Source: Escherichia phage phiD2-2. Taken from it: DNA of 49,337 nt. The DNA is taken from the sequence record OR861627.1; one strand, written 5' to 3'. Both the position numbers and the translations under genes were made by a program. This document shows positions 2,332 to 43,932 of the stretch, one piece after another (position 1 is the first letter of the stretch; each line of letters opens with the position of its first letter). Below the pieces are notes generated by a model. That model was not told where the DNA came from, did not search any database, and saw nothing but the letters and a program-made list of their open reading frames with translations.

Positions 2332-3900
2332 TTAACCCATCAGCCGAGGATTAATGAAAACAATATCATCAATCCGGCAAGTGTAGTTCATCTCTTCGAG
2401 CGTGATAAGAAGACTATCGATTCGCTCAGATACTTTCTGTTGACCGTTGAAAGGCGTAACGTTCCGGCACTTTGCAACGATGCTATGAATAGGTGCGCGG
2501 CCTTTGTTTTTCTTCGCGATCTCAGTGATAACATCAATCAGCTTACGAGATTCAGCCTCATCACCAGCATACCCGGCAGCGCTGGCAGACGACAGATAAG
2601 TCCTGGAAAGCTCATTGAAGATCATGATTGCTTCCTGCATTGTTTCAAGGTCAATCTCACGGTTGGAACGGTTCGGTGATTCACCCTCCCAATTCTTGAT
2701 CGTGTGGAGAACTGAAGCAATACGCAAGGCGTGCTTATCGAACTTGCCGAGATGACCGCGTAGCATTGAGTGAGAGTATTTCCCACCTGCGGCGAAATCC
2801 GGTTCCATCGCCTGACGCGCAAGGTTTAATTCACGCATAGCATTACGGCTTACAGAGAGAACAACGTTTTCCTCCTTCATGATGTTGTGAACGAGTCTGT
2901 AATATTTGCTAACCAGTCCTCGATCGACTTCTTTATACAATGCATCACCATTTTCATCACAAAGAATACGAGTACCTAAAAGCGGTTCCTCGCGAACTAA
3001 CAGGAAGCGCTCAGATACACCGATACCTCGTTGGCCTGCGTCCATGATACCTTTGATTGTTTCATCCTGCGCAATTACGCAGATCGAGCCAACCGGGCAA
3101 AGAGACAAGTTGTTGTCCTGATTGGAGCGAGCGACCTCCATATGGTTTTTATCCCACGCCTTAAGAATAAGCTCACTGTTAGATTTCTTATCTGAACCTC
3201 CATACGTAAGACCGAGCAATGTATTGATTGCCGTTGCCTCATCAGAAATTACGGAAAAGTGGCCCTGAACAGCGGCTACTTTCGCAAGACCTTCAGGTGT
3301 AGGATCTGATACAGCAAAAACAATATCAGCCATCTTTTTGATCTTCTCTTCCAGTTTTTCTTTGTCCTCGTATAGTGCCGCAGTCGTGTTTCCTTTAGGA
3401 TCATTCTTGATTTCCTTCTCAACCTGGCGTAGCTGACTGGTTAAACGAATACGTTCCTTTTTGCGCTCTTCATTCAGTCGCTGAATCTCCGCACGCATAG
3501 GTGTAATCGCCGCTGAGTTAATCGCGGACTTACCTGTTGATGGTGGCTGGCTGATTACCATGTAAAGCGCGGTCGGCTGTTCCTCTCCGTGATATTGCAC
3601 CCAAAACTTCCCGAGCATCGCGGCTGAGATGCAACCTATAAAATGAGCATACGCGGATGAAACCGGGAACTGGACTGATTCAGCTTTTGCTTTTGCATAT
3701 TCGAATACCAGGTTATCGCCACCTAACGAAATCAGAGGGAACTTATCGTTGCCGCTATTGATATCGATCGGATCTTGCCAAAATGAAACTGAGTCACCAT
3801 AGCTGTTTTCACGAATTGCGATCGCCACCGGATTAACTCCAGTGCTATTGGCGATCTCAATAATCTGTTGGTAATTCAGTTTTGGCTTAATATTAAACAT
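2332..3900 (-). CDS. P-loop NTPase, DUF3987-like putative replication/helicase-associated protein
   Basis: Walker-A-like PPSTGKS, long coiled-coil insert, acidic VISDEAT Walker-B-like stretch; ATG (MFNIKPK) preceded by AAGGAG. Family assignment is from memory of the architecture. Confidence 0.45.
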   Translation of the reverse strand: MFNIKPKLNYQQIIEIANSTGVNPVAIAIRENSYGDSVSFWQDPIDINSGNDKFPLISLGGDNLVFEYAKAKAESVQFPVSSAYAHFIGCISAAMLGKFWVQYHGEEQPTALYMVISQPPSTGKSAINSAAITPMRAEIQRLNEERKKERIRLTSQLRQVEKEIKNDPKGNTTAALYEDKEKLEEKIKKMADIVFAVSDPTPEGLAKVAAVQGHFSVISDEATAINTLLGLTYGGSDKKSNSELILKAWDKNHMEVARSNQDNNLSLCPVGSICVIAQDETIKGIMDAGQRGIGVSERFLLVREEPLLGTRILCDENGDALYKEVDRGLVSKYYRLVHNIMKEENVVLSVSRNAMRELNLARQAMEPDFAAGGKYSHSMLRGHLGKFDKHALRIASVLHTIKNWEGESPNRSNREIDLETMQEAIMIFNELSRTYLSSASAAGYAGDEAESRKLIDVITEIAKKNKGRAPIHSIVAKCRNVTPFNGQQKVSERIDSLLITLEEMNYTCRIDDIVFINPRLMG

Positions 3901-3976: not shown

Positions 3977-4393
3977 TTATAAGTATTTGGCCTCAAAGGT
4001 TGTGCCGTCAGCTATGCTAAAACCGATCTCTTCGCGAAACAATGTCCAACGGCAACCATCCTCATCAAAAATATAACCAGCTACGCCGCCGAGAGCGCGA
4101 CCGCTTTCCACCTGGTAACGCTTGCCAAGTTTGAATGATTTTTTCATCGGATTACGATGGTCAAGCCCGGTGCACTTGAGCGTCTTTGTTTTCAACTCAG
4201 CGAACTTCGCGAAGAAGATTTCATCAGATCCGTGAATCTGTAATTCATCATGCTTTTCAAGTTTTAAATACTTTCCGCATTTTAATTTTACTTCGCGAGT
4301 GCCATCATAGCGCTCACGACCTTTGTACAGGTTGTTTACTTCAAATCCTGTGATTTTATCTGCGGAAGTACATTTAAGTTTGATGGATTTCAT
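3977..4393 (-). CDS. hypothetical protein (138 aa)
   Basis: Track ORF preceded by conserved leader CCAATCAGGAG and a boundary cassette. Confidence 0.6.
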   Translation of the reverse strand: MKSIKLKCTSADKITGFEVNNLYKGRERYDGTREVKLKCGKYLKLEKHDELQIHGSDEIFFAKFAELKTKTLKCTGLDHRNPMKKSFKLGKRYQVESGRALGGVAGYIFDEDGCRWTLFREEIGFSIADGTTFEAKYL

Positions 4394-4472
4394 TGCGTTA
4401 GCTCCTGATTGGTTATCTTGAATAAGGTCACTTTATCAAATGACCTTACGGCAATATTAACAAATCGTGCTA
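4394..4472 (-). promoter_or_regulatory. gene-boundary cassette
   Basis: TAGCACGATTTGTTAA, hairpin AAGGTCA/TGACCTT enclosing TGaTAAAGT, CCAATCAGGAG leader. Confidence 0.5.
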
Positions 4473-4473
4473 T

Positions 4474-4686
4474 TTACCAGGGAATATAATCGTCGTCGTC
4501 ATTATCACCAGTATCATCGCCTGGCATATCGAAGTCGGGATTATATTCACTTTCTGCGTCCATATCCATATTCCCTAGCGCGTCGTCAAGCGTAATTTCT
4601 TTATATGCAACCTTGATACACCATTCCGCACCAAGCCCGGCATCGAGCGCTGCAAAATAACGAGTCCAGAAATTATCCTGTTCCAT
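4474..4686 (-). CDS. small highly acidic protein (70 aa)
   Basis: GGAG 8 nt upstream of ATG; C-terminal half is strongly acidic (DMDAESEYNPDFDMPGDDTGDNDDDDYIPW). Confidence 0.55.
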   Translation of the reverse strand: MEQDNFWTRYFAALDAGLGAEWCIKVAYKEITLDDALGNMDMDAESEYNPDFDMPGDDTGDNDDDDYIPW

Positions 4687-7690: not shown

Positions 7691-7733
7691 GAGGATCTAG
7701 TGTTACCCGGTTCGTCTGGTAGTCATCTCCATT

Positions 7734-7753
7734 TTTAGCAAAAAGTGCTATCG
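7734..7753. repeat. boundary palindrome copy at the edge of the AT-rich hub
   Basis: TTTTAGCAAAAAGTGCTATC. Confidence 0.5.
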
Positions 7754-8154
7754 ATTACACTTTACCTTGTCACGGATGTAATATTTGTCTAGAATCGCAC
7801 TTGTGACAAAATTACACACTGTGACGCCTCTAAATATACATATAGATATATGTATCTATATAATATATATAGTGTTTTTTTTATTTATATATATAGATAA
7901 TTATATTGTAATAGTTGTGTATAGTTGTCTTACATTGTCTAGCGTACTGTTGGCATATTTCTATCTGCATGTTTATATATACAGTACTTTTTTGAGAGCT
8001 ATATATTTCTATAGTGACTCTAGACAGCTAGACAAATGTTACACGGCTTAAAATTGGCTCGCAGGCATTGACAGCTCTACATCGCAATGTCACAATGGCA
8101 ATTGTTGGCACATTATGACACCATTTACACACGAATAGACAAAGAGGGTATATT
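7754..8154. promoter_or_regulatory. AT-rich divergent control hub 1 with GTGTAA/TGTCTA-type repeats
   Basis: Alternating TA tract (7840-7910), TTGTCAC/GTGACA repeats, GTGTAACATTTGTCTAG in reverse orientation near 8027-8046, TTGACA near 8069. Confidence 0.5.
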
Positions 8155-8670
8155 ATGAGCAACACCAATCAGGAATTAAAAATCACCGATATGATTCGAC
8201 TAACCTGCGATGCAATGTATCGCGACAAAGGCATGAATGAGTTCTCTTTCGTGGCTGATGATATGGCCCTCGAGGCCGCGCGATTCTACTTCCGTGACCA
8301 GGAGGTAAGTGATAGCGATCTTGAATCTGCCGCTGCCGGATGGGTGGACCAGAACCAGGGTGAGGTGGAGAAGCGATTCAAGTCTGCTTTCATTACGCCA
8401 ATCATTACCCGGCACTTTTGCAAGTATGGCAAGGTGGCAAAGGTGAAGGTAGGCCGGAATGACGCTGCAATCACAATGATAACGGTTATCGTTACCGACG
8501 AAGAGATTCCCGTGAAGAAGCGCCGCAGCCGGAAAAAAGTTAGCCTGGCCGACTGCCTGGATTCGTTTGATGTTGATGTTGGCAAGCTATCGGATAGCGA
8601 GTTAATGGTTCGCGACGTGAATGAGATCGTACGCCAGATGAAAGCACATATCGAAAAGTGCGGGCTGTAA
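8155..8670 (+). CDS. hypothetical protein (171 aa), first rightward early gene
   Basis: Track ORF with AAGAGGG RBS; acidic patches. Confidence 0.6.
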   Translation: MSNTNQELKITDMIRLTCDAMYRDKGMNEFSFVADDMALEAARFYFRDQEVSDSDLESAAAGWVDQNQGEVEKRFKSAFITPIITRHFCKYGKVAKVKVGRNDAAITMITVIVTDEEIPVKKRRSRKKVSLADCLDSFDVDVGKLSDSELMVRDVNEIVRQMKAHIEKCGL

Positions 8671-8957: not shown

Positions 8958-9428
8958 ATGGCGACAATTACCGTATTTCTTGCTAAAGATGAGCTTGATG
9001 GCGAAATGTCATTCTTCGCGTTTGAGCATAAAACCGGCTCGCACTGGCACACTTACAGCCATTACACGGTTATCTCAATTGAAGCGTACGACGGCGAACT
9101 GCTCACTGATAAACTGAGTAATTTCATTGAAGCCGTTAAAGCTAGCGGCGGCTGCGAGTGGAAGGAAGATCACGAAGTTATGCGAATGTTTGAGATGGTC
9201 AATCCGGTTCGCCTTGAGTCGTTCGAGCTTGATGCTAATGTGACTATCAAGGTGAGAAAGTCGGGTGAGTTATTGCCAGGGATGCGTGTACTGACTGGTT
9301 ACTCTGGCCGTAAGGTGTGGCGCACTGTATCCAAGATTCGCCAGCGCTCGGCAACATGCTATAGCGTATTCTTTGATGATGGTTGGAATATGATGTCCGG
9401 TAGTGAGGTAAAGTATCTCACCAAATAG
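8958..9428 (+). CDS. hypothetical protein (156 aa)
   Basis: Track ORF with GGAGG RBS; TAG stop lies inside the downstream palindrome. Confidence 0.6.
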   Translation: MATITVFLAKDELDGEMSFFAFEHKTGSHWHTYSHYTVISIEAYDGELLTDKLSNFIEAVKASGGCEWKEDHEVMRMFEMVNPVRLESFELDANVTIKVRKSGELLPGMRVLTGYSGRKVWRTVSKIRQRSATCYSVFFDDGWNMMSGSEVKYLTK

Positions 9429-9506
9429 CACGAATTGTTAAAACCTGATCGGGGTATCTTGCTATAGTTACCCCATCGAAACGAGATACCAATCAGAGGA
9501 ATAACC
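9425..9506 (+). promoter_or_regulatory. gene-boundary cassette (upstream stop TAG inside palindrome)
   Basis: ATAGCACGAATTGTTAAAAC, hairpin GGGGTA/TACCCC enclosing TGcTATAGT, CATCGAAACGAG, CCAATCAGAGGAAT. Confidence 0.6.
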
Positions 9507-9737
9507 ATGTCAATCGTCAAGAACCAGCAAGCCATCGATTCAACCAACAACAACCGCTTTGCTATTTTCATCACTCGCGACAACAAGCGTTTTGCGGTCA
9601 AGGTAGTACCGGGTGGATACAATACATACATGGAAGGTAACGGAAAATGGGTTCGGTGTGACAACCTCTCAAACTTCCTGGTCTGGAATGCAGAACTCCA
9701 GGGATTTGATGATATCAGCACTTTAATTGAGGAGTAA
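9507..9737 (+). CDS. hypothetical protein (76 aa)
   Basis: Track ORF preceded by cassette and CCAATCAGAGGAAT leader. Confidence 0.55.
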   Translation: MSIVKNQQAIDSTNNNRFAIFITRDNKRFAVKVVPGGYNTYMEGNGKWVRCDNLSNFLVWNAELQGFDDISTLIEE

Positions 9738-9742
9738 TAATC

Positions 9743-9970
9743 ATGCCACGTTACAGCAACCTAACTCAACTAACCCGCGTCAACGGGCACATGATCCCGG
9801 CTAAATCTACTCACTGCGCGAAAGGCGCAAAGCACGGATTATATTTCAAGTGGCGCGGCCAATGGAACTTCACAGCTGTGAATAATTTCTACATGCGAGT
9901 TCCAGGTGATGACCCGCAATCAGTAGTAGAAAACTCAATCGGTGACAACAAGATCGAGGTACTAAAATGA
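9743..9970 (+). CDS. hypothetical protein (75 aa)
   Basis: Track ORF with GAGGAG RBS. Confidence 0.55.
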   Translation: MPRYSNLTQLTRVNGHMIPAKSTHCAKGAKHGLYFKWRGQWNFTAVNNFYMRVPGDDPQSVVENSIGDNKIEVLK

Positions 9971-27769: not shown

Positions 27770-30643
27770 ATGGTTGATAAGGTAGCAGGTCTGTCGCTTG
27801 ACGTTGATGTGTCAACAGTGCAGCGCGCCGTCAAGTCACTGAAAGAGTTTTCAAAGGCCAACGACCAGGCCGCTGATTCTATGGGTTCTTTAATCAATGA
27901 GTCAGAGGTTGCAAAACAGAAGGCCAAAGAACACGCTGAACAACTCAGGCGTCAGAGAAAAGAGTATGAGGCCGTGGAGAAGGCAATCGATCCTACAGTA
28001 TCAAAAATGGAAAGGTTGAAGATTGCATCTCAGCAGCTTGATAAACTCTGGCAGCAGGGAGTCGTTCCAGATGAGACATTTTTCCGTTTGGGTGAAATGC
28101 TGGATCTGCAAAACGCAAAACTTGCTCTCAGCCGGGCTATGCTTACGGAAGAAGGTCAGGCGGCATTGCAGGAAGCGAAAGCAAAAGAGCAGGCGGCAGC
28201 ACGAAGCAAGGCGTTCATGGATGCCCTGAATGGTCAAGTTAACGCGATCGGCAAGACTCATGCTGAATTGATGGAACTGAAAGCGGCTGAGCTTGGTTTA
28301 TCGAAAGAAGCAGCACCACTAATCGCAAAACTTAAAGATCAAGGCCGGGCTATGAATGCAGCAGGTATTAGCGCCGGGGAATACAGGCAGGCAATGCGAA
28401 TGCTTCCTGCACAGATTACCGACGTCGTTACATCTCTTGCATCCGGCATGCCAGTTTGGATGGTTGCCATCCAGCAAGGCGGTCAAATCAAGGACTCGTT
28501 CGGCGGGATCAGTAATACGTTTAAAGTGTTGCTGAGTTATATTAATCCAGTCACAGCAGGGGTTGGCGTTCTCGTTGGCTCGTTAGGTCTTCTGGCGAAA
28601 GCTGGTTATGACTCTTACAAGTCAATAACTGATATTCAGAATGCGCTTATTGAGACTGGCGGTTATGCAGGTGTTACGGCTGAAGAGCTTGATTCAGTGT
28701 CTAAAAAGATCGCACAGACAAGCAACTCAACCATTGGGAGTATTCGCGATATTGTAACGGAGTTGGCGAGTTCTGGTAAGTACACCCGCGAGCAGATCCA
28801 GAACATCACTAAGGCTACCGCAGAGTGGTCAGCGTCAACAGGAAAATCAGCAAGCCAAATTATTTCTGAGTTCGACAAAATCGCAAGCGATCCGGTAAAA
28901 GGCCTGAAGAAGTTAAACGAGCAATATAATTTCCTTGAAAAAGGGCAACTTACCTATATCGATACATTAAGCCGGACGAAAGGAGAAACTGAGGCAGTAT
29001 CAGAGGCTACCAAACTATTCGCAGACGTAATGGAAAAGCGAATGAAGTCGATCGCGGATAACGCTACTCCTCTGGAAAAGATGTGGAGCGATATTAAACA
29101 ATGGGCTTCGGACGCGTGGGGATGGGTTGGTGATCATACACTCGGGGCGCTAAACCTGATTGTCGACGTTGTTCAGGGTACAGTGATTCAGGTTAAAATG
29201 ATTCTTGCGAAGGGTGATGAGTACATCTCAAACTTTATCGCCTCAGCCATAAAGGCAACTCAGTCACTACCTGGAATGAGTGATTTCGGCGCTGATGTGC
29301 TGAAGGAGCAGGAGAACATCGTAAAAAGTTCTCGCGACAACTACGACCAGTTGGCTTCAGAGCTTGATGCTATTAACGCTCGCGTAGAAAAAGGCGAGAT
29401 GGGATACGTTGAAGCGATGAAGCAGCGTCGAACTCTTGAAAAGCAGTACAGTGAGGAAACTAGGGAGGCAATAAGGAAAGAAGCAGAAGAGATCGAGAAG
29501 CGAAACCGAGAAAGAAATAAGCAGTCGAAAATTGTACGCTCACCGACAGAGCAATTCGACAAGGAGTTAATTTCACTCAAGGCTCAACTTAAGGTATTGC
29601 AGGAGCATAAGGAGATCGGTCAAAAACTTTCCGCGCAGAGAAAGGCGCTGTTTACTACCGAGGCTACGATTGCTGTTCTTCGTGAAGCCAGCTCTAAGCG
29701 TCAGTTGTCTGCGGAAGAAAAAGCGTTGCTGGCAAGTCAGGAGAGAGTTATTGAGCTTGCGAAACAGAAGGCCGAGATTGGCGATCAGATTGTTAAGCAA
29801 CAACAGTTGAATGATCTTACCGATAAATCTCTGAAGTTTGTCAATGAGATGACGGCAGCTACAGAACAGCTAAACGCGTCTCGAGGGATGAGCACCCGAG
29901 AAATGGAAAGGCAAGCTGAGTTGGCTAAGATCACTACTGATTATATTAATGCAGGTGGCAGCGAAGGAGATGAAAAACTCCAGAACATGATCAAGGCACA
30001 AAATGATTACTATGCTGCGGAAGATGCCAAGCGTTCTGACTGGTTAGCAGGTGCTGAAAGTGCATTTGCAGATTACGGCGATTCTGCAATGGATATGTAC
30101 GGCAATGTGTATGATATCGCGTCAAGTTCACTTAACGGAATGAGTGACATGATGACCCAATTCCTGACTACAGGTAAGGCAAATTTTGAGGACTTTGCGA
30201 AAAACATCATTAGCATGATTATTAAGATGATTGCTCAAATGGTAATCTTCAATACGATCTCAGGCATGATGGGCGGTAAGACGTGGAGCTTTGCTGGAGG
30301 GGTGTCGCCTGGTGCTTCTGCGGTATCACAGGCAACTCCTACGCCTGCCGTCTCTGGTTTTAGGTCTTTATCTTCAGGCGTCGCTGTTACCTCGCTTGCT
30401 GCCGCTGCGGGTAGTGTTGCAACATCTGGATTTAACGCATCTAAATCCGCACCGAAGGCAGTGAACCAATCAGCAGGCGGGACGGTCGTTGATGTTAGGG
30501 GTATGGAGGTTAAAGTTGACAACGGTTCAGATCCGAGAGGAATTTCTCAGGGCGTAGAAATGATGTTCAAAAAAATGATTCGAGAGTCTTGTTCACAGGG
30601 CGGAGAGGTTTACAATTACATTCAGGAAAAAACAGGAGGCTAA
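27770..30643 (+). CDS. tail tape measure protein
   Basis: About 957 aa, coiled-coil-rich N-terminal two thirds, glycine/hydrophobic segment near C-terminus; track ORF trimmed to ATG (MVDKVAG) with AGGGGG RBS. Confidence 0.85.
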
Positions 30644-37036: not shown

Positions 37037-37725
37037 TGTCATACGGTGCTTTTATAGATGTAAACGGAAACCCATTCATAACCCCGTTATCCACGCCATT
37101 CGCCTTATATGAGAGAGGGGAAATTCAATCAGTAAATGTTAGTGGTTCACAGGTTGCGGAGAGATATGTTCGGATACCTACAGGTGTTCCGGTTATAGCT
37201 TTTTGCAAAACAACAAACACGCAGCAGGGGACCGCGCTTTCAGCCTTTACTTTCAGAAGCGGACCCAATGTTGGAACTGTTTATATAAGGGGGACAAATC
37301 CAGCAAACCAATCATACACGCTAACATACTACATATTTGCCATATTTGAGCAGTCACTACCGAGCTGGGGTATGGCAATATGGGATTCGTCAGGAAAGCT
37401 AGTGCTGACAAATGAGACAAAAGTCCTTAGTGATTTGGTTACAATCGGCACTCCTGGATACGCTGGAGGTGGATTAAACATAGACGCAACACTCAGCGGA
37501 AGCTACGCAGTTGTTCCAACTATACTTGGCAACTATCAAATTGTTATTGGCAGGCTGCCAACTGGGCAACCCATAATAGGAAACTCAACAGCAGGCAGCT
37601 CATGCAGATACAACGGGAGCACAACGAGAATAAATGCAGCAGCAACCACTGCGGCAGGTCGGATATTGAACACCACGAATAATGGAAATATTATAACAGC
37701 AATAAAAACGGCAGCATACGACTAA
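37036..37725 (+). CDS. tail-fibre-region protein, possible receptor-binding accessory (229 aa)
   Basis: Track ORF with ATGA overlap to the previous gene; Gly/Thr/Asn-rich. Confidence 0.5.
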   Translation: MSYGAFIDVNGNPFITPLSTPFALYERGEIQSVNVSGSQVAERYVRIPTGVPVIAFCKTTNTQQGTALSAFTFRSGPNVGTVYIRGTNPANQSYTLTYYIFAIFEQSLPSWGMAIWDSSGKLVLTNETKVLSDLVTIGTPGYAGGGLNIDATLSGSYAVVPTILGNYQIVIGRLPTGQPIIGNSTAGSSCRYNGSTTRINAAATTAAGRILNTTNNGNIITAIKTAAYD

Positions 37726-37750
37726 GCCCCTTTCGGGGCTTTTCTTTTAC
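37724..37750. terminator. bidirectional terminator between fibre-region gene and lipoprotein gene
   Basis: Stem AAGCCCC/GGGGCTT with TTTC loop then T-run. Confidence 0.65.
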
Positions 37751-37980
37751 ATCGAGCAATCGTGAGACTTGAAGTTATTCTCTGATACGTAATGGAATGA
37801 GAATGGATACCCAGCACGTAACAGCATCTCATCACCGCGCATCTTTGATCCAAAAACGGAAACCGAGTACTCTGCGTCACCTGATTCATAAATCGCAGTA
37901 CAAGTGCGCTCAGGCATCGATGAGCAACCAGTCAGGATGAATGCCGCAGCAATAATGGTGATTAATTTTTTCATTTGCAT
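37747..37980 (-). CDS. outer-membrane lipoprotein, Cor/Llp-like superinfection-exclusion candidate
   Basis: Convergent to the fibre genes; signal peptide with lipobox (MKKLITIIAAAFILTGCSS); short Cys-containing mature part; GAGGA RBS. Track start 38040 trimmed. Confidence 0.5.
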   Translation of the reverse strand: MQMKKLITIIAAAFILTGCSSMPERTCTAIYESGDAEYSVSVFGSKMRGDEMLLRAGYPFSFHYVSENNFKSHDCSM

Positions 37981-38040
37981 GTCCTCGTCGTTAGTGTGAT
38001 TGCATTGTATGTCGCATTTACTTTTATTGCAATAGCGCAA

Positions 38041-38502
38041 TTACAATTTTTTTTCGTGTAACGGGTGTCTATTTTTGTAACTGGAGATGGTGTTACAAAA
38101 TCTACCCAATCCGAACGCAGGTAGATATGATAAAAACTCTATATAATATATATAGATAGATAATATTTAATTTTAGCTTTATATATATAATTATTGTTGT
38201 GTAACAGTTGTCTATCGTGTAACTGGTGATTTGATTGATTCGTCAAATTTCTATCATATATGTTCAAAATTTAATCAATATGGATTCTACTTGTAGCTAT
38301 CCCTGTATTTCTAAGAAAAAGCGGTTACAAGTATTACACAGTAGACATCACATAAAAATAGACTTAAGCCATTGATTCCGTTAATGCTGGTTGTAACTTG
38401 AGCGATATAGACACGCTATTACACACCAATTACATGTATCCGATTGACTAAACGCTGTTAATGGCTATAATGGATTCATCGTAAACGAGGGAGATAAACG
38501 CA
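38041..38502. promoter_or_regulatory. AT-rich divergent control hub 2 with GTGTAAC-N-GTCTAT-N-GTAACTGG iterons
   Basis: Direct copies at 38055-38084 and 38197-38226, inverted copies near 38320-38350 and 38388-38426, TA-rich tract 38130-38200, consensus promoter at 38444-38471. Confidence 0.55.
38444..38471 (+). promoter_or_regulatory. sigma70-type promoter for the recombination operon
   Basis: TTGACT, 16-bp spacer, TATAAT; about 30 nt upstream of the exonuclease ATG. Confidence 0.65.
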
Positions 38503-42383: not shown

Positions 42384-43319
42384 TTATAGTAGATCACTTG
42401 CTGAGAATAACTTAGCTTGCATTCCTGAGCGGTATCCTCCCTGATTCGGGATGATTATTTTTAATTGTCTGTCGTCTGCCATGTATAAAGTTTCTTTATC
42501 AGATGGTTCGCACGCCACCCTTACCTCCCGATCTCCCTTGTATCTGTACGCAACCATTTCTAGATTTTCAGGAGTGAAGCAGGCCCATACCTCTTGCTTT
42601 GTGTGAAATGCAATATGCTGAGCATCAATCCAATTAAGGCATAAGTAGATCGCTTTTTCAGTTTTACCAGTCACGGCAACCGAGCAACTTGTGTATTTCT
42701 TTGCATAAAATGACTCCCTACCCTCCTCATCAATAATCAAAATATTGCAAAACTCTTCATCAAGACCGTCCTCGTGTACAAGTTGACATGGTATGGTGTG
42801 AAATACACTCTCGCCGCCATCCTCTCGACGTTTTACGCCAACGTCGAATGATTCAGTAGGTAGCGACTCAAACATGCTTAGAGGTGTGTTTATGCGCTTC
42901 TCTGTGCGCTCCATAACTTTCATCACTGCCTCGTGTTCTGCCATCATAACATTGACGCCAGCTACCGGAGTTCTTCGCGCTTTTTTGTTGGCCTTGACAA
43001 TGTATTCCTGCGGAACCTTGCCGAGAAATCTTCCCAGGATATTTATACATTCGCTGTACGGCATACCAGTTAATTTAATCAACCAACCGACTCCAGAGTC
43101 GTTACCGCATGAGTTGCAGATCGCACCGCCGTCGCCCGGAGTGTTAAGGTTATCAGTCCAGCGAAAGCGGTCCTTACCCCCGCAGTTAGGGCAAGGTTGG
43201 TGTTTCTTATTAAAAACATCATTCGGCAATCCGCAGATTGATTGGAAAGCCTCGCGCCATAACCCCTTCATGTACGGCAAAACGTCCTCTTTCTGAAACA
43301 TCATAAATTCTTCGTTCAC
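42384..43319 (-). CDS. DNA primase (zinc-ribbon + TOPRIM-like)
   Basis: N-terminal CPNCGGKDRFRW...CNSCG zinc ribbon, acidic C-terminal half; followed by a leftward terminator. Confidence 0.6.
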   Translation of the reverse strand: MNEEFMMFQKEDVLPYMKGLWREAFQSICGLPNDVFNKKHQPCPNCGGKDRFRWTDNLNTPGDGGAICNSCGNDSGVGWLIKLTGMPYSECINILGRFLGKVPQEYIVKANKKARRTPVAGVNVMMAEHEAVMKVMERTEKRINTPLSMFESLPTESFDVGVKRREDGGESVFHTIPCQLVHEDGLDEEFCNILIIDEEGRESFYAKKYTSCSVAVTGKTEKAIYLCLNWIDAQHIAFHTKQEVWACFTPENLEMVAYRYKGDREVRVACEPSDKETLYMADDRQLKIIIPNQGGYRSGMQAKLFSASDLL

Positions 43320-43376: not shown

Positions 43377-43397
43377 TGTTTTAACTAAAAATGCTAT
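43377..43397 (-). repeat. boundary palindrome copy containing the HTH gene stop
   Basis: Leftward reading ATAGCATTTTTAGTTAAAA with TAA stop inside; terminator follows. Confidence 0.5.
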
Positions 43398-43833
43398 TGG
43401 TCGTCCCGATATCTTCCTTCTTCACGACGCGCATAAATTTCTTGTTCTTGCATCGCTTCTCAAGGCACTTGCCGTTACCGTCAAACTTCAGGTCGAATCG
43501 CAACCATGCGGCACGAAATCCTTTACACCCCTGTCGTCGGTAAGCACGATGCGCAGCTTCAGCACCTTGCCACGAAATCATGTTGCGTTCTTTCCAGCCT
43601 TGCACCGTCTGATTGCTAACCTTTAGAGCTTTTGCGCAGGCCGCAGGGCCACCATAATATTCGATAAGCGCATCAAGTCGCGCTCGCAATCCGGCGCGTG
43701 TTTCTTCTTTATGAATATAGAAGCCGCAGCGCTGTCGAGGCTTTTTATCTTTACCGCGTCGTGTTCCGTTGTTACCATTGATGTGACGTTTATCGATTTC
43801 ACCAGTTGACTCTGCGATACGTTGAATACTCAT
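43381..43833 (-). CDS. putative DNA-binding regulator (Cro/YdaS-like HTH plus Cys-rich C-terminus)
   Basis: AACAKALKVSNQTVQGWKERNMIS looks like a Cro/CI-type HTH; C-terminal cysteines suggest zinc binding; AGGAG RBS abuts a palindrome copy. Confidence 0.4.
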   Translation of the reverse strand: MSIQRIAESTGEIDKRHINGNNGTRRGKDKKPRQRCGFYIHKEETRAGLRARLDALIEYYGGPAACAKALKVSNQTVQGWKERNMISWQGAEAAHRAYRRQGCKGFRAAWLRFDLKFDGNGKCLEKRCKNKKFMRVVKKEDIGTTNSIFS

Positions 43834-43845
43834 CTTAATTCTCCT

Positions 43846-43932
43846 ATAGCACTTTTTGCTAAAAACGTTTACTGTATGCCGTGTATTATAGCGTAAACGT
43901 TACAACGATTCAAAGGATTAATAGACGTGACA
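43846..43932 (+). promoter_or_regulatory. divergent palindrome/cassette between HTH gene and helicase
   Basis: ATAGCACTTTTTGCTAAAAAC, hairpin AACGTTTAC/GTAAACGTT enclosing TATAGC, AAAGGA. Confidence 0.5.

Follow-up and report, generated by a model that had tools for sequence, protein, structure and literature searches.

The hub between cor and recE

The AT-rich, repeat-bearing gap between cor and the recE-erf-ssb operon of Escherichia phage phiD2-2 raises the question of whether it is an origin of DNA replication, a control region of early transcription, or both. The stretch of DNA analyzed here (the window; sequence record OR861627.1; 49,337 nt) is the complete, circularly permuted genome of this T1-like siphophage (Tunavirus), which over the 3.5 kb tested shares 99.9% identity with Escherichia phage FCWL1 and about 94% with T1. 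The element in question is referred to below as hub B (about 38041-38440), and a related element of the same genome as hub A (7700-8150). With about even confidence, we consider a replication origin to be the likeliest role of hub B, with early promoters of the sigma-70 type on either side of it.

An earlier note, made from the letters alone, had described a gap of 460 bp at this place. The gap exists, but its true extent is 37975-38502 (528 bp), since cor begins at the ATG in position 37974. The same note had taken the whole of 38041-38502 as the hub, the last 60 bp of which turned out to be an ordinary sigma-70 promoter and ribosome-binding site for recE. The GC content of the hub is 0.30-0.32. 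Its neighbors and its main elements are as follows:

37747-37974, minus strand: cor, superinfection-exclusion lipoprotein gene, start ATG at 37974, on the left of the gap
38055-38084, plus strand: left box triplet (GTGTAAC at 38056, GTCTAT at 38067, TGTAAC at 38076; 9-10 bp phasing)
38091-38098, minus strand: single inverted box TGTTACAA between the left triplet and the TA tract
38126-38196, no strand: TA tract, candidate DNA-unwinding element, with the conserved, -10-like CTATATAAT at 38139-38147
38197-38226, plus strand: right box triplet (GTGTAAC at 38199, GTCTAT at 38210, GTGTAAC at 38217)
38227-38290, no strand: AT-rich spacer between the rightward and leftward clusters, top strand richer in T than in A
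38322-38364, minus strand: inverted box cluster 1 (GTTACA at 38324, TTACAC at 38334, TAGAC at 38342, ATAGAC at 38358)
38390-38436, mixed strands: promoter-proximal boxes (TGTAAC at 38392 on the plus strand; ATAGAC at 38407, TTACAC at 38419 and TTACA at 38430 on the minus strand)
From 38503, plus strand: recE-erf-ssb operon, the right neighbor of hub B

On both strands of 38041-38502, 15 sites were found, comprising ten of the TGTAAY/RTTACA type and five of the GTCTA/TAGAC type, against 2.2 +/- 1.4 expected, and none of 2000 local dinucleotide-preserving shuffles reached this count. The interval holds 7 of the 28 TGTAAC and 4 of the 11 GTCTAT words of the genome. Same-strand neighbors of the TGTAAY/GTCTA box class are spaced by 9-11 bp (22 of 27 cases), so that neighboring boxes would lie on one face of the helix. 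The two direct copies of about 30 bp that had been reported at 38055-38084 and 38197-38226 are indeed there (CGTGTAACGGGTGTCTATTTTTGTAACTGG and TTGTGTAACAGTTGTCTATCGTGTAACTGG, respectively); each of them, however, is not a 30-bp iteron but a triplet of 6-7-bp boxes spaced by 9-11 bp. The inverted partial copies reported with them were found as well, at 38322-38364 and 38405-38436.

The boxes occur in opposite orientations, with rightward ones at 38056-38081 and 38199-38223 and leftward ones at 38092, 38324-38363 and 38407-38434, and both orientations surround the TA tract and the AT-rich spacer. The inverted box at 38091-38098 forms, together with 38072-38080, a palindrome (TTTTGTAAC-N10-GTTACAAA) whose center is variable.

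Duplex stability and asymmetry of the hub

The alternating TA tract, which the earlier note had expected to melt easily, was located at 38126-38196, and nearest-neighbor energies computed over the whole genome ranked it second in the 49 kb for low duplex stability among segments of 60-100 bp (z about 5.3). The least stable DNA of the genome is the TA tract of hub A (z 5.8-6.0); after these two tracts (z 5-6), the next segment has a z of only 3.4. The same holds for phage TLS, in which the two least stable segments of the genome fall in its two hubs. The spacer at 38227-38290 is nearly invariant in Tunavirus and is the sixth least stable 60-bp segment of the phiD2-2 genome.

In the 100 nt to the right of the TA tract (38227-38330 in hub B, and the corresponding part of 37 other hubs), the top strand carries more T than A and mostly more G than C, with a mean GC skew of +0.34 compared with -0.03 on the left of the tract. 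This skew marks a directional asymmetry of the module. A cruciform or hairpin conserved in the TA tract was considered and rejected, since the DNA folding z is about 0 in both hubs of phiD2-2 and of TLS and falls below -2.6 in just two other lineages. One Drexlerviridae lineage (locus L050, 2650-2730) has a G/C-rich inverted repeat, CCCCTCCCCC...GGGGAGGGG, which clamps its TA tract (fold z -3.0); nothing comparable to this clamp was found in T1 or TLS.

A second copy of the module

The earlier note had treated the region as the sole one of its kind and missed a paralogous copy at 7700-8150, the only other site of the genome at which TGTAAY/GTCTA boxes cluster (10 against 2.65 expected; 1 of 2000 shuffles as high). 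It is situated at the divergent junction of the two early gene arms:

7700-8150, no strand: hub A (TA tract 7831-7930; rightward tandem boxes 7905-7945; inverted boxes 8018-8046 and 8122-8142)
8068-8096: near-consensus sigma-70 promoter of hub A

Local alignment showed that 7768-7926 of hub A is collinear with 38057-38219 of hub B, and the TA tracts of the two hubs have a nearly identical motif. As the two share their boxes and their order, hub B is one copy of a duplicated module and not a single hub.

Comparison of 7770-8670 with positions 140-1114 of T1 revealed that the hub A boxes are TGTAAY/TGTCTAG in phiD2-2 and GTTAATC/CGTAATC in T1, whereas the intervening TA tract shows no difference. 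Next to hub A, the first early gene to read rightward (8155-8670) is only 52% identical to T1 ORF77, in genomes that are otherwise about 93% alike. These sequence differences suggest that the hub A boxes and the adjacent gene may constitute a linked specificity module. The box family may be degenerate (GTGT(T)AA(T)C), or the two hubs may have partly different binders.

Conservation and family-wide design

Conservation of the repeats in relatives had been proposed by the earlier note as a check of its claim, and it was observed: boxes and TA tract are kept in 15 Tunavirus genomes, above the level of synonymous sites. In these genomes, variable columns amount to 12 of 95 at the boxes (13%), 4 of 71 in the TA tract (6%; longest invariant run 38140-38179) and 80 of 234 in the rest of the hub (34%), the difference between the boxes and the rest being significant (Fisher p = 4e-5). 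The box positions of the left triplet are largely invariant. In recE, 171 of 300 third codon positions (57%) vary, compared with 6% of first and 2% of second positions. Judged from this alignment, the constraint is comparable to that on recE first codon positions and indicates purifying selection. On the left of the gap, cor and the gene upstream of it (37203-37950) are mosaic among Tunavirus genomes, with almost all columns variable, and several relatives have a different lipoprotein gene at the cor position.

For the wider comparison, 46 loci around RecE homologs and the whole genome of TLS were used. All Drexlerviridae loci have an AT-rich region upstream of recE with its parts in one order, i.e., a rightward triplet, an inverted box, a TA tract usually beginning with CTATATAAT, a second rightward triplet, a spacer of about 100 bp and an inverted triplet. 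The second rightward triplet is situated 30-55 bp to the right of the TA center in every hub examined, and the inverted triplet or clusters lie at +145 to +190 bp in all hubs. The words TGTAAY/TGTCTA are confined to Tunavirus and Sertoctavirus, while TLS and most other genera have TGTTCAC/TTGTTC instead. TLS carries two collinear hubs (28707-29165 and 49708-588).

The same hub design was also found in two distant phages (loci L056 and L058), whose DUF3987 helicase is just 35-37% identical to that of phiD2-2. The hub of L056 (9390-9700), with the boxes GGGGAAGG and AGGGTTA, is localized directly upstream of the helicase operon, and that of L058 (1990-2370), with the box TGGGCG, at the head of a helicase-containing operon. 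The hub module may thus mark a phage group much wider than Drexlerviridae. The proximity of exonuclease, Erf and SSB, to which the earlier note had pointed, is not the main link, given that the TLS hub is not even divergent and that the hub of the distant phages adjoins the helicase operon.

T1 and TLS share E. coli as a host but differ in their boxes, and therefore a host factor is unlikely and a co-evolving, phage-encoded binder is implied. When the genomes and plasmids of E. coli were searched with hub DNA, with satellites in mind, there was no match.

Candidate binders and replication proteins

Two genes of phiD2-2 are of particular relevance here:

2335-3900, minus strand: DUF3987 MCM-like helicase gene (522 aa; annotated as 'putative ATPase'), candidate initiator-helicase
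43381-43833: Cro-like regulator, the one clear regulator

Modeled by fold comparison, the DUF3987 protein comes out as an MCM-like helicase that has a winged helix at its C terminus and a helix-turn-helix-like element at its N terminus; this result came from fold comparison alone, as a sequence search against the PDB gave no match. DUF3987 proteins have been described as divergent SF6/MCM-like replicative helicases whose C terminus bears a winged helix-turn-helix (PMC4889955), and one of them was proven to be a 5'-3' helicase and the partner of a primase (PMC11724360). On the basis of the model, the protein is probably the replicative helicase of T1-like phages. Hub A sits at the head of the helicase's operon. 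Other replication proteins encoded by the phage are a DnaG-type primase, whose gene occupies 42384-43319, and an SF2 helicase. Both the winged helix and the N-terminal element of the DUF3987 protein show class-specific differences between phages with TGTAAY-type and TGTTCAC-type boxes.

An attempt to pick the binder by comparing T1-type and TLS-type proteins gave no discrimination, all four candidates being 53-59% identical. The small proteins encoded on either side of the helicase gene lack conservation in L056, one of the distant phages.

The Cro-like regulator was also considered as binder of the hub boxes and judged unlikely, since its own promoter region carries a different element. This is a 21-nt element, ATAGCACnnnTTGnTAAAA, with a palindromic core (TAGCA-N5-TGCTA), which occurs in 26 copies against 2.3 expected, always co-directional with genes (e.g., 7733-7751 on the minus strand and 43846-43864 on the plus strand); one copy lies in the regulator's own promoter gap and none in hub B. 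The regulator would more probably bind this element than the hub boxes. The element is known from TLS as a 'direct repeat' of unknown role (PMC11447400).

Comparison with known origins

The origins of Staphylococcus aureus pathogenicity islands (SaPI) contain 6-12 iterons of five or six nucleotides that are divided equally between the two sides of an AT-rich center and point in opposite directions, and an MCM-related self-loading Rep helicase binds them through its C-terminal winged helix (PMC9371898); those of E. coli phage-inducible chromosomal islands (PICI) have two iteron sets around an AT-rich region (PMC6092414). The hubs resemble them in having short (5-7 bp) repeats in two oppositely pointing sets with an AT-rich center, and in a repeat sequence that is specific to each element; in addition, phiD2-2 is predicted to encode an MCM-related helicase with a winged-helix domain. 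They differ in that the island origin lies immediately downstream of rep, which the phiD2-2 hubs do not, in that there are two hubs per genome, between early promoters, in a virulent phage and not in a satellite, and in that the hub boxes are triplets of two alternating motifs with about 10-bp phasing.

The satellite phage P4 has two cis regions, ori and crr (iteron regions 4291-4590 and 9086-9809), with 8-bp type-1 iterons in both orientations and a tandem spacing of 9-11 bp, to which its alpha protein binds. Two separated cis regions with the same short iterons are also what hubs A and B present, and the core TGTTCAC(C) of the P4 iteron TGTTCACC is the box word of the TLS-type relatives, in which it likewise recurs in tandem at about 10 bp. 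However, phiD2-2 itself has TGTAAY/TGTCTA in place of TGTTCACC, and P4 is without a comparable alternating-TA tract between the box sets. Moreover, the P4 alpha protein is a primase-SF3 helicase, unlike the MCM-like (SF6) helicase of phiD2-2, and no homology between the two was found; comparison of the DUF3987 profile with P4 alpha by hhalign gave a probability of 0.3%, confined to the Walker A motif.

In archaeal origins, origin recognition boxes (ORB) are placed around a duplex-unwinding element, the winged helix of Orc1/Cdc6 binds them and MCM is loaded, and in the SV40 core origin the AT tract doubles as a promoter element. The likeness to the hubs, i.e., inverted elements flanking an AT-rich melting region and an MCM-like or self-loading helicase, is an analogy of design only, as an Orc1/Cdc6 homolog was not found in the phage and the hub boxes are far shorter than ORBs. 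An origin of the lambda type, with about four iterons of 18-19 bp within the O gene and an AT-rich region, shares with the hubs the placing of repeats beside AT-rich DNA, and in both a strong promoter close by could help the duplex to open; the hub repeats are, in contrast, intergenic boxes of 6-7 bp, and no Pfam matches to O/P-like proteins were found among the 10 replication-region proteins scanned. The hub is also unlike a DnaA-dependent oriC, as DnaA boxes (TTATNCACA) are absent from 37975-38502 at up to one mismatch, compared with 42 in the genome.

The authors of the TLS genome found no iteron-like (lambda-like) repeats (PMC11447400), and recent papers on the T1 family state that neither an origin nor repeats of the iteron kind could be identified (PMC11447400, PMC7718038). 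Our search of the searchable literature for transcript-start or replication-initiation mapping in T1-like phages found none.

Promoters and other elements of hub B

The remaining elements of the region are the following:

38004-38032, minus strand: sigma-70-like promoter of cor (TTGCAA-17-TACAAT, 9/12 matches), left boundary of hub B
38235-38375, plus strand: 46-codon open reading frame
38365-38377, minus strand: perfect IHF-consensus match AATCAATGGCTTA, between box clusters
38444-38471, plus strand: near-consensus sigma-70 promoter of recE-erf-ssb (TTGACT-16-TATAAT, 11/12 matches)

Within hub B, sigma-70 promoters (-35 and -10 elements at 16-18-bp spacing) were found at the two edges only. 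The recE promoter is conserved at all Drexlerviridae loci (TTGACT-N16/17-TATAAT) and annotated as a promoter in T1 and relatives, and the weaker cor promoter is annotated as such in the relative SA32RD. The IHF-consensus match, a possible bending site, is partly invariant in Tunavirus and the single one in the gap (6 in the genome; 0.06 expected per 528 bp). Hub B is devoid of GATC, and no Rfam family of structured RNA reached the gathering score anywhere in the genome.

The open reading frame at 38235-38375 is the coding sequence CPTT1_049 of the updated T1 record AY216660 and remains open in relatives. It was rejected as a gene, as its variable sites are distributed 8/13/12 by codon position, compared with 18/6/171 in recE. 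In the absence of codon-position bias, the constraint on it acts on DNA and not on protein, and it is probably not a gene. The GC skew along the genome was also discarded as origin evidence, because it turns where the orientation of the genes changes, which makes replication and transcription inseparable in it.

Alternative explanations

The promoters lead to the explanation that survives best beside an origin, namely that the hub controls early transcription only, as a cluster of strong promoters for the host RNA polymerase, with the TA tract as a -10/UP-rich entry and the boxes as operators or enhancer-like sites of a phage regulator that would time the early operons (recE-erf-ssb, cor and the arms of hub A). 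We regard this as possible, if rather unlikely. Both hubs head early operons and carry near-consensus promoters (38444-38471, 8068-8096 and 38032-38004), in every genus further inverted boxes directly adjoin the -35 of the recE promoter, 24 of 35 distinct hubs, those of distant phages included, have a TATAAT in an equivalent position within the TA tract, and the phage encodes helix-turn-helix proteins. However, a distance of 250-400 bp separates the recE promoter from the TA tract and the central boxes upstream of it, which is unusual for sigma-70 operators, and hub B of TLS serves one promoter, yet the whole 460-bp design is kept. The TATAAT of hub B lacks a -35, and in 15 of 35 hubs it has an opposite-facing mirror copy, which fits dyad symmetry better. 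The Cro-like regulator has a better candidate site in the 21-nt element, and the extreme duplex instability is limited to the two hubs.

It is very improbable that the hub serves another DNA transaction, either as a pac-like site of the terminase or as a RecE/Erf recombination and strand-invasion hot spot for recombination-dependent replication. Some pac sites (P1, SPP1) consist of repeated short boxes flanking a central region, which the box layout resembles; in addition, the GenBank record of T1 is linearized about 200 bp to the left of hub A, and hub B adjoins recombination genes. T1-type headful packaging, however, uses one pac site, compared with two hubs per genome, and the hub of distant phages, situated beside the helicase operon, is separated from the terminase gene by several kb and intervening genes. 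Furthermore, box specificity varies between phages and nothing ties this variation to terminases, which the comparison did not cover, and in TLS pac was placed elsewhere by its authors (PMC11447400).

The remaining explanation, to which we give hardly any credence, is that of a non-specific AT-rich spacer or curved DNA for host nucleoid proteins (H-NS, IHF, Fis) with the boxes as by-products of composition; it agrees with the low GC content and the one perfect IHF consensus but is already disfavored, as dinucleotide-preserving shuffles never attain the observed box count, the boxes are conserved above spacers and strictly phased at 9-11 bp, and their sequence changes between same-host phages while the layout is kept.

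Hub B as a candidate replication origin

The reading of hub B as a replication origin is made plausible by the two extremes of low computed duplex stability, by phased, oppositely oriented and lineage-specific boxes, and by the strong constraint on them. That hubs of this type go together with the MCM-like helicase module even in distant phages, as seen in the sequence comparison, plausibly points the same way. There is no other origin candidate in the genome, and none is known for T1-like phages. The origin architecture claimed by the earlier note thus stands insofar as the layout fits origins of self-loading helicases that were defined by experiment and the matching type of helicase is encoded, but early promoters bound the hub and a purely regulatory role is possible.

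Several points weigh against an origin. Both hubs lie exactly where early promoters are expected and possess near-consensus sigma-70 promoters, and the deep conservation of a TATAAT within that tract of TA-rich DNA speaks for a promoter no less than for mere meltability. The start of replication at hub B, the binding of a phage protein to the boxes and the identity of that protein are all matters that we infer from sequence. As to the helicase, its role as box binder is what we infer from the model: helix 3 of the winged helix is acidic and not a typical recognition helix, and the class-specific divergence of the winged helix and the N-terminal element is confounded with phylogeny. Neither hub adjoins the helicase gene, the distance to the start of hub A being about 3.8 kb and hub B being far off on the map. 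Finally, the hub A boxes of T1 (GTTAATC/CGTAATC) differ from the hub B boxes, and one protein may not serve both hubs. It should be stressed that the roles of origin and promoter are not exclusive, as many origins include or need promoters.

If hub B is an origin, a phage-encoded sequence-specific protein would assemble on the TGTAAY/TGTCTA boxes of both hubs, about one helical turn apart. The boxes would recruit and orient the MCM-like DUF3987 helicase of the phage, which could bind directly (by its winged helix or its N-terminal helix-turn-helix-like element) or via a small partner protein. The TA tract would then open, and the DnaG-like primase and the host polymerase would take over. The promoters at the edges (that of cor leftward, that of recE rightward) would drive early genes and may help the opening.

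Significance

The kind of element proposed here, an iteron/unwinding-element origin of a self-loading helicase, is known; new, and apparently undescribed, appear to be the presence, the duplication and the specificity switching of the module in the T1 family. T1 belongs to the seven classical T phages, and to our knowledge neither the origin nor the initiator of its replication has ever been defined. The module offers two precise candidate origin sites per genome, a candidate initiator-helicase and natural specificity variants, and the origin question for the T1 family is now directly testable. T1-like phages are notorious as laboratory and fermentation contaminants, and, if the reading of the hubs as origins is true, they would provide a compact phage-dependent replicon for the engineering of such phages.

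In a broader and more doubtful proposal, which we put forward tentatively, Drexlerviridae and the wider group of phages with a DUF3987 helicase and a primase may replicate from duplicated origins of archaeal/eukaryotic-like design, in which lineage-specific opposed boxes flank an unwinding element and serve to load an MCM-like helicase of the self-loading type. The two hubs would either cooperate, as do ori and crr of P4, or act independently, and box switching (TGTAAY, TGTTCAC, GGGGAAGG, TGGGCG) would define replicon identity among co-infecting phages. As a further twist, the TATAAT in the TA tract may give rise to a transcript that enters the G/T-rich flank as a primer or R-loop. Should hub B and its counterparts prove to be origins, this would account for the strictness with which these non-coding blocks are conserved, and MCM-like self-loading helicases would be found to use iteron/unwinding-element origins in virulent phages and not just in satellites.

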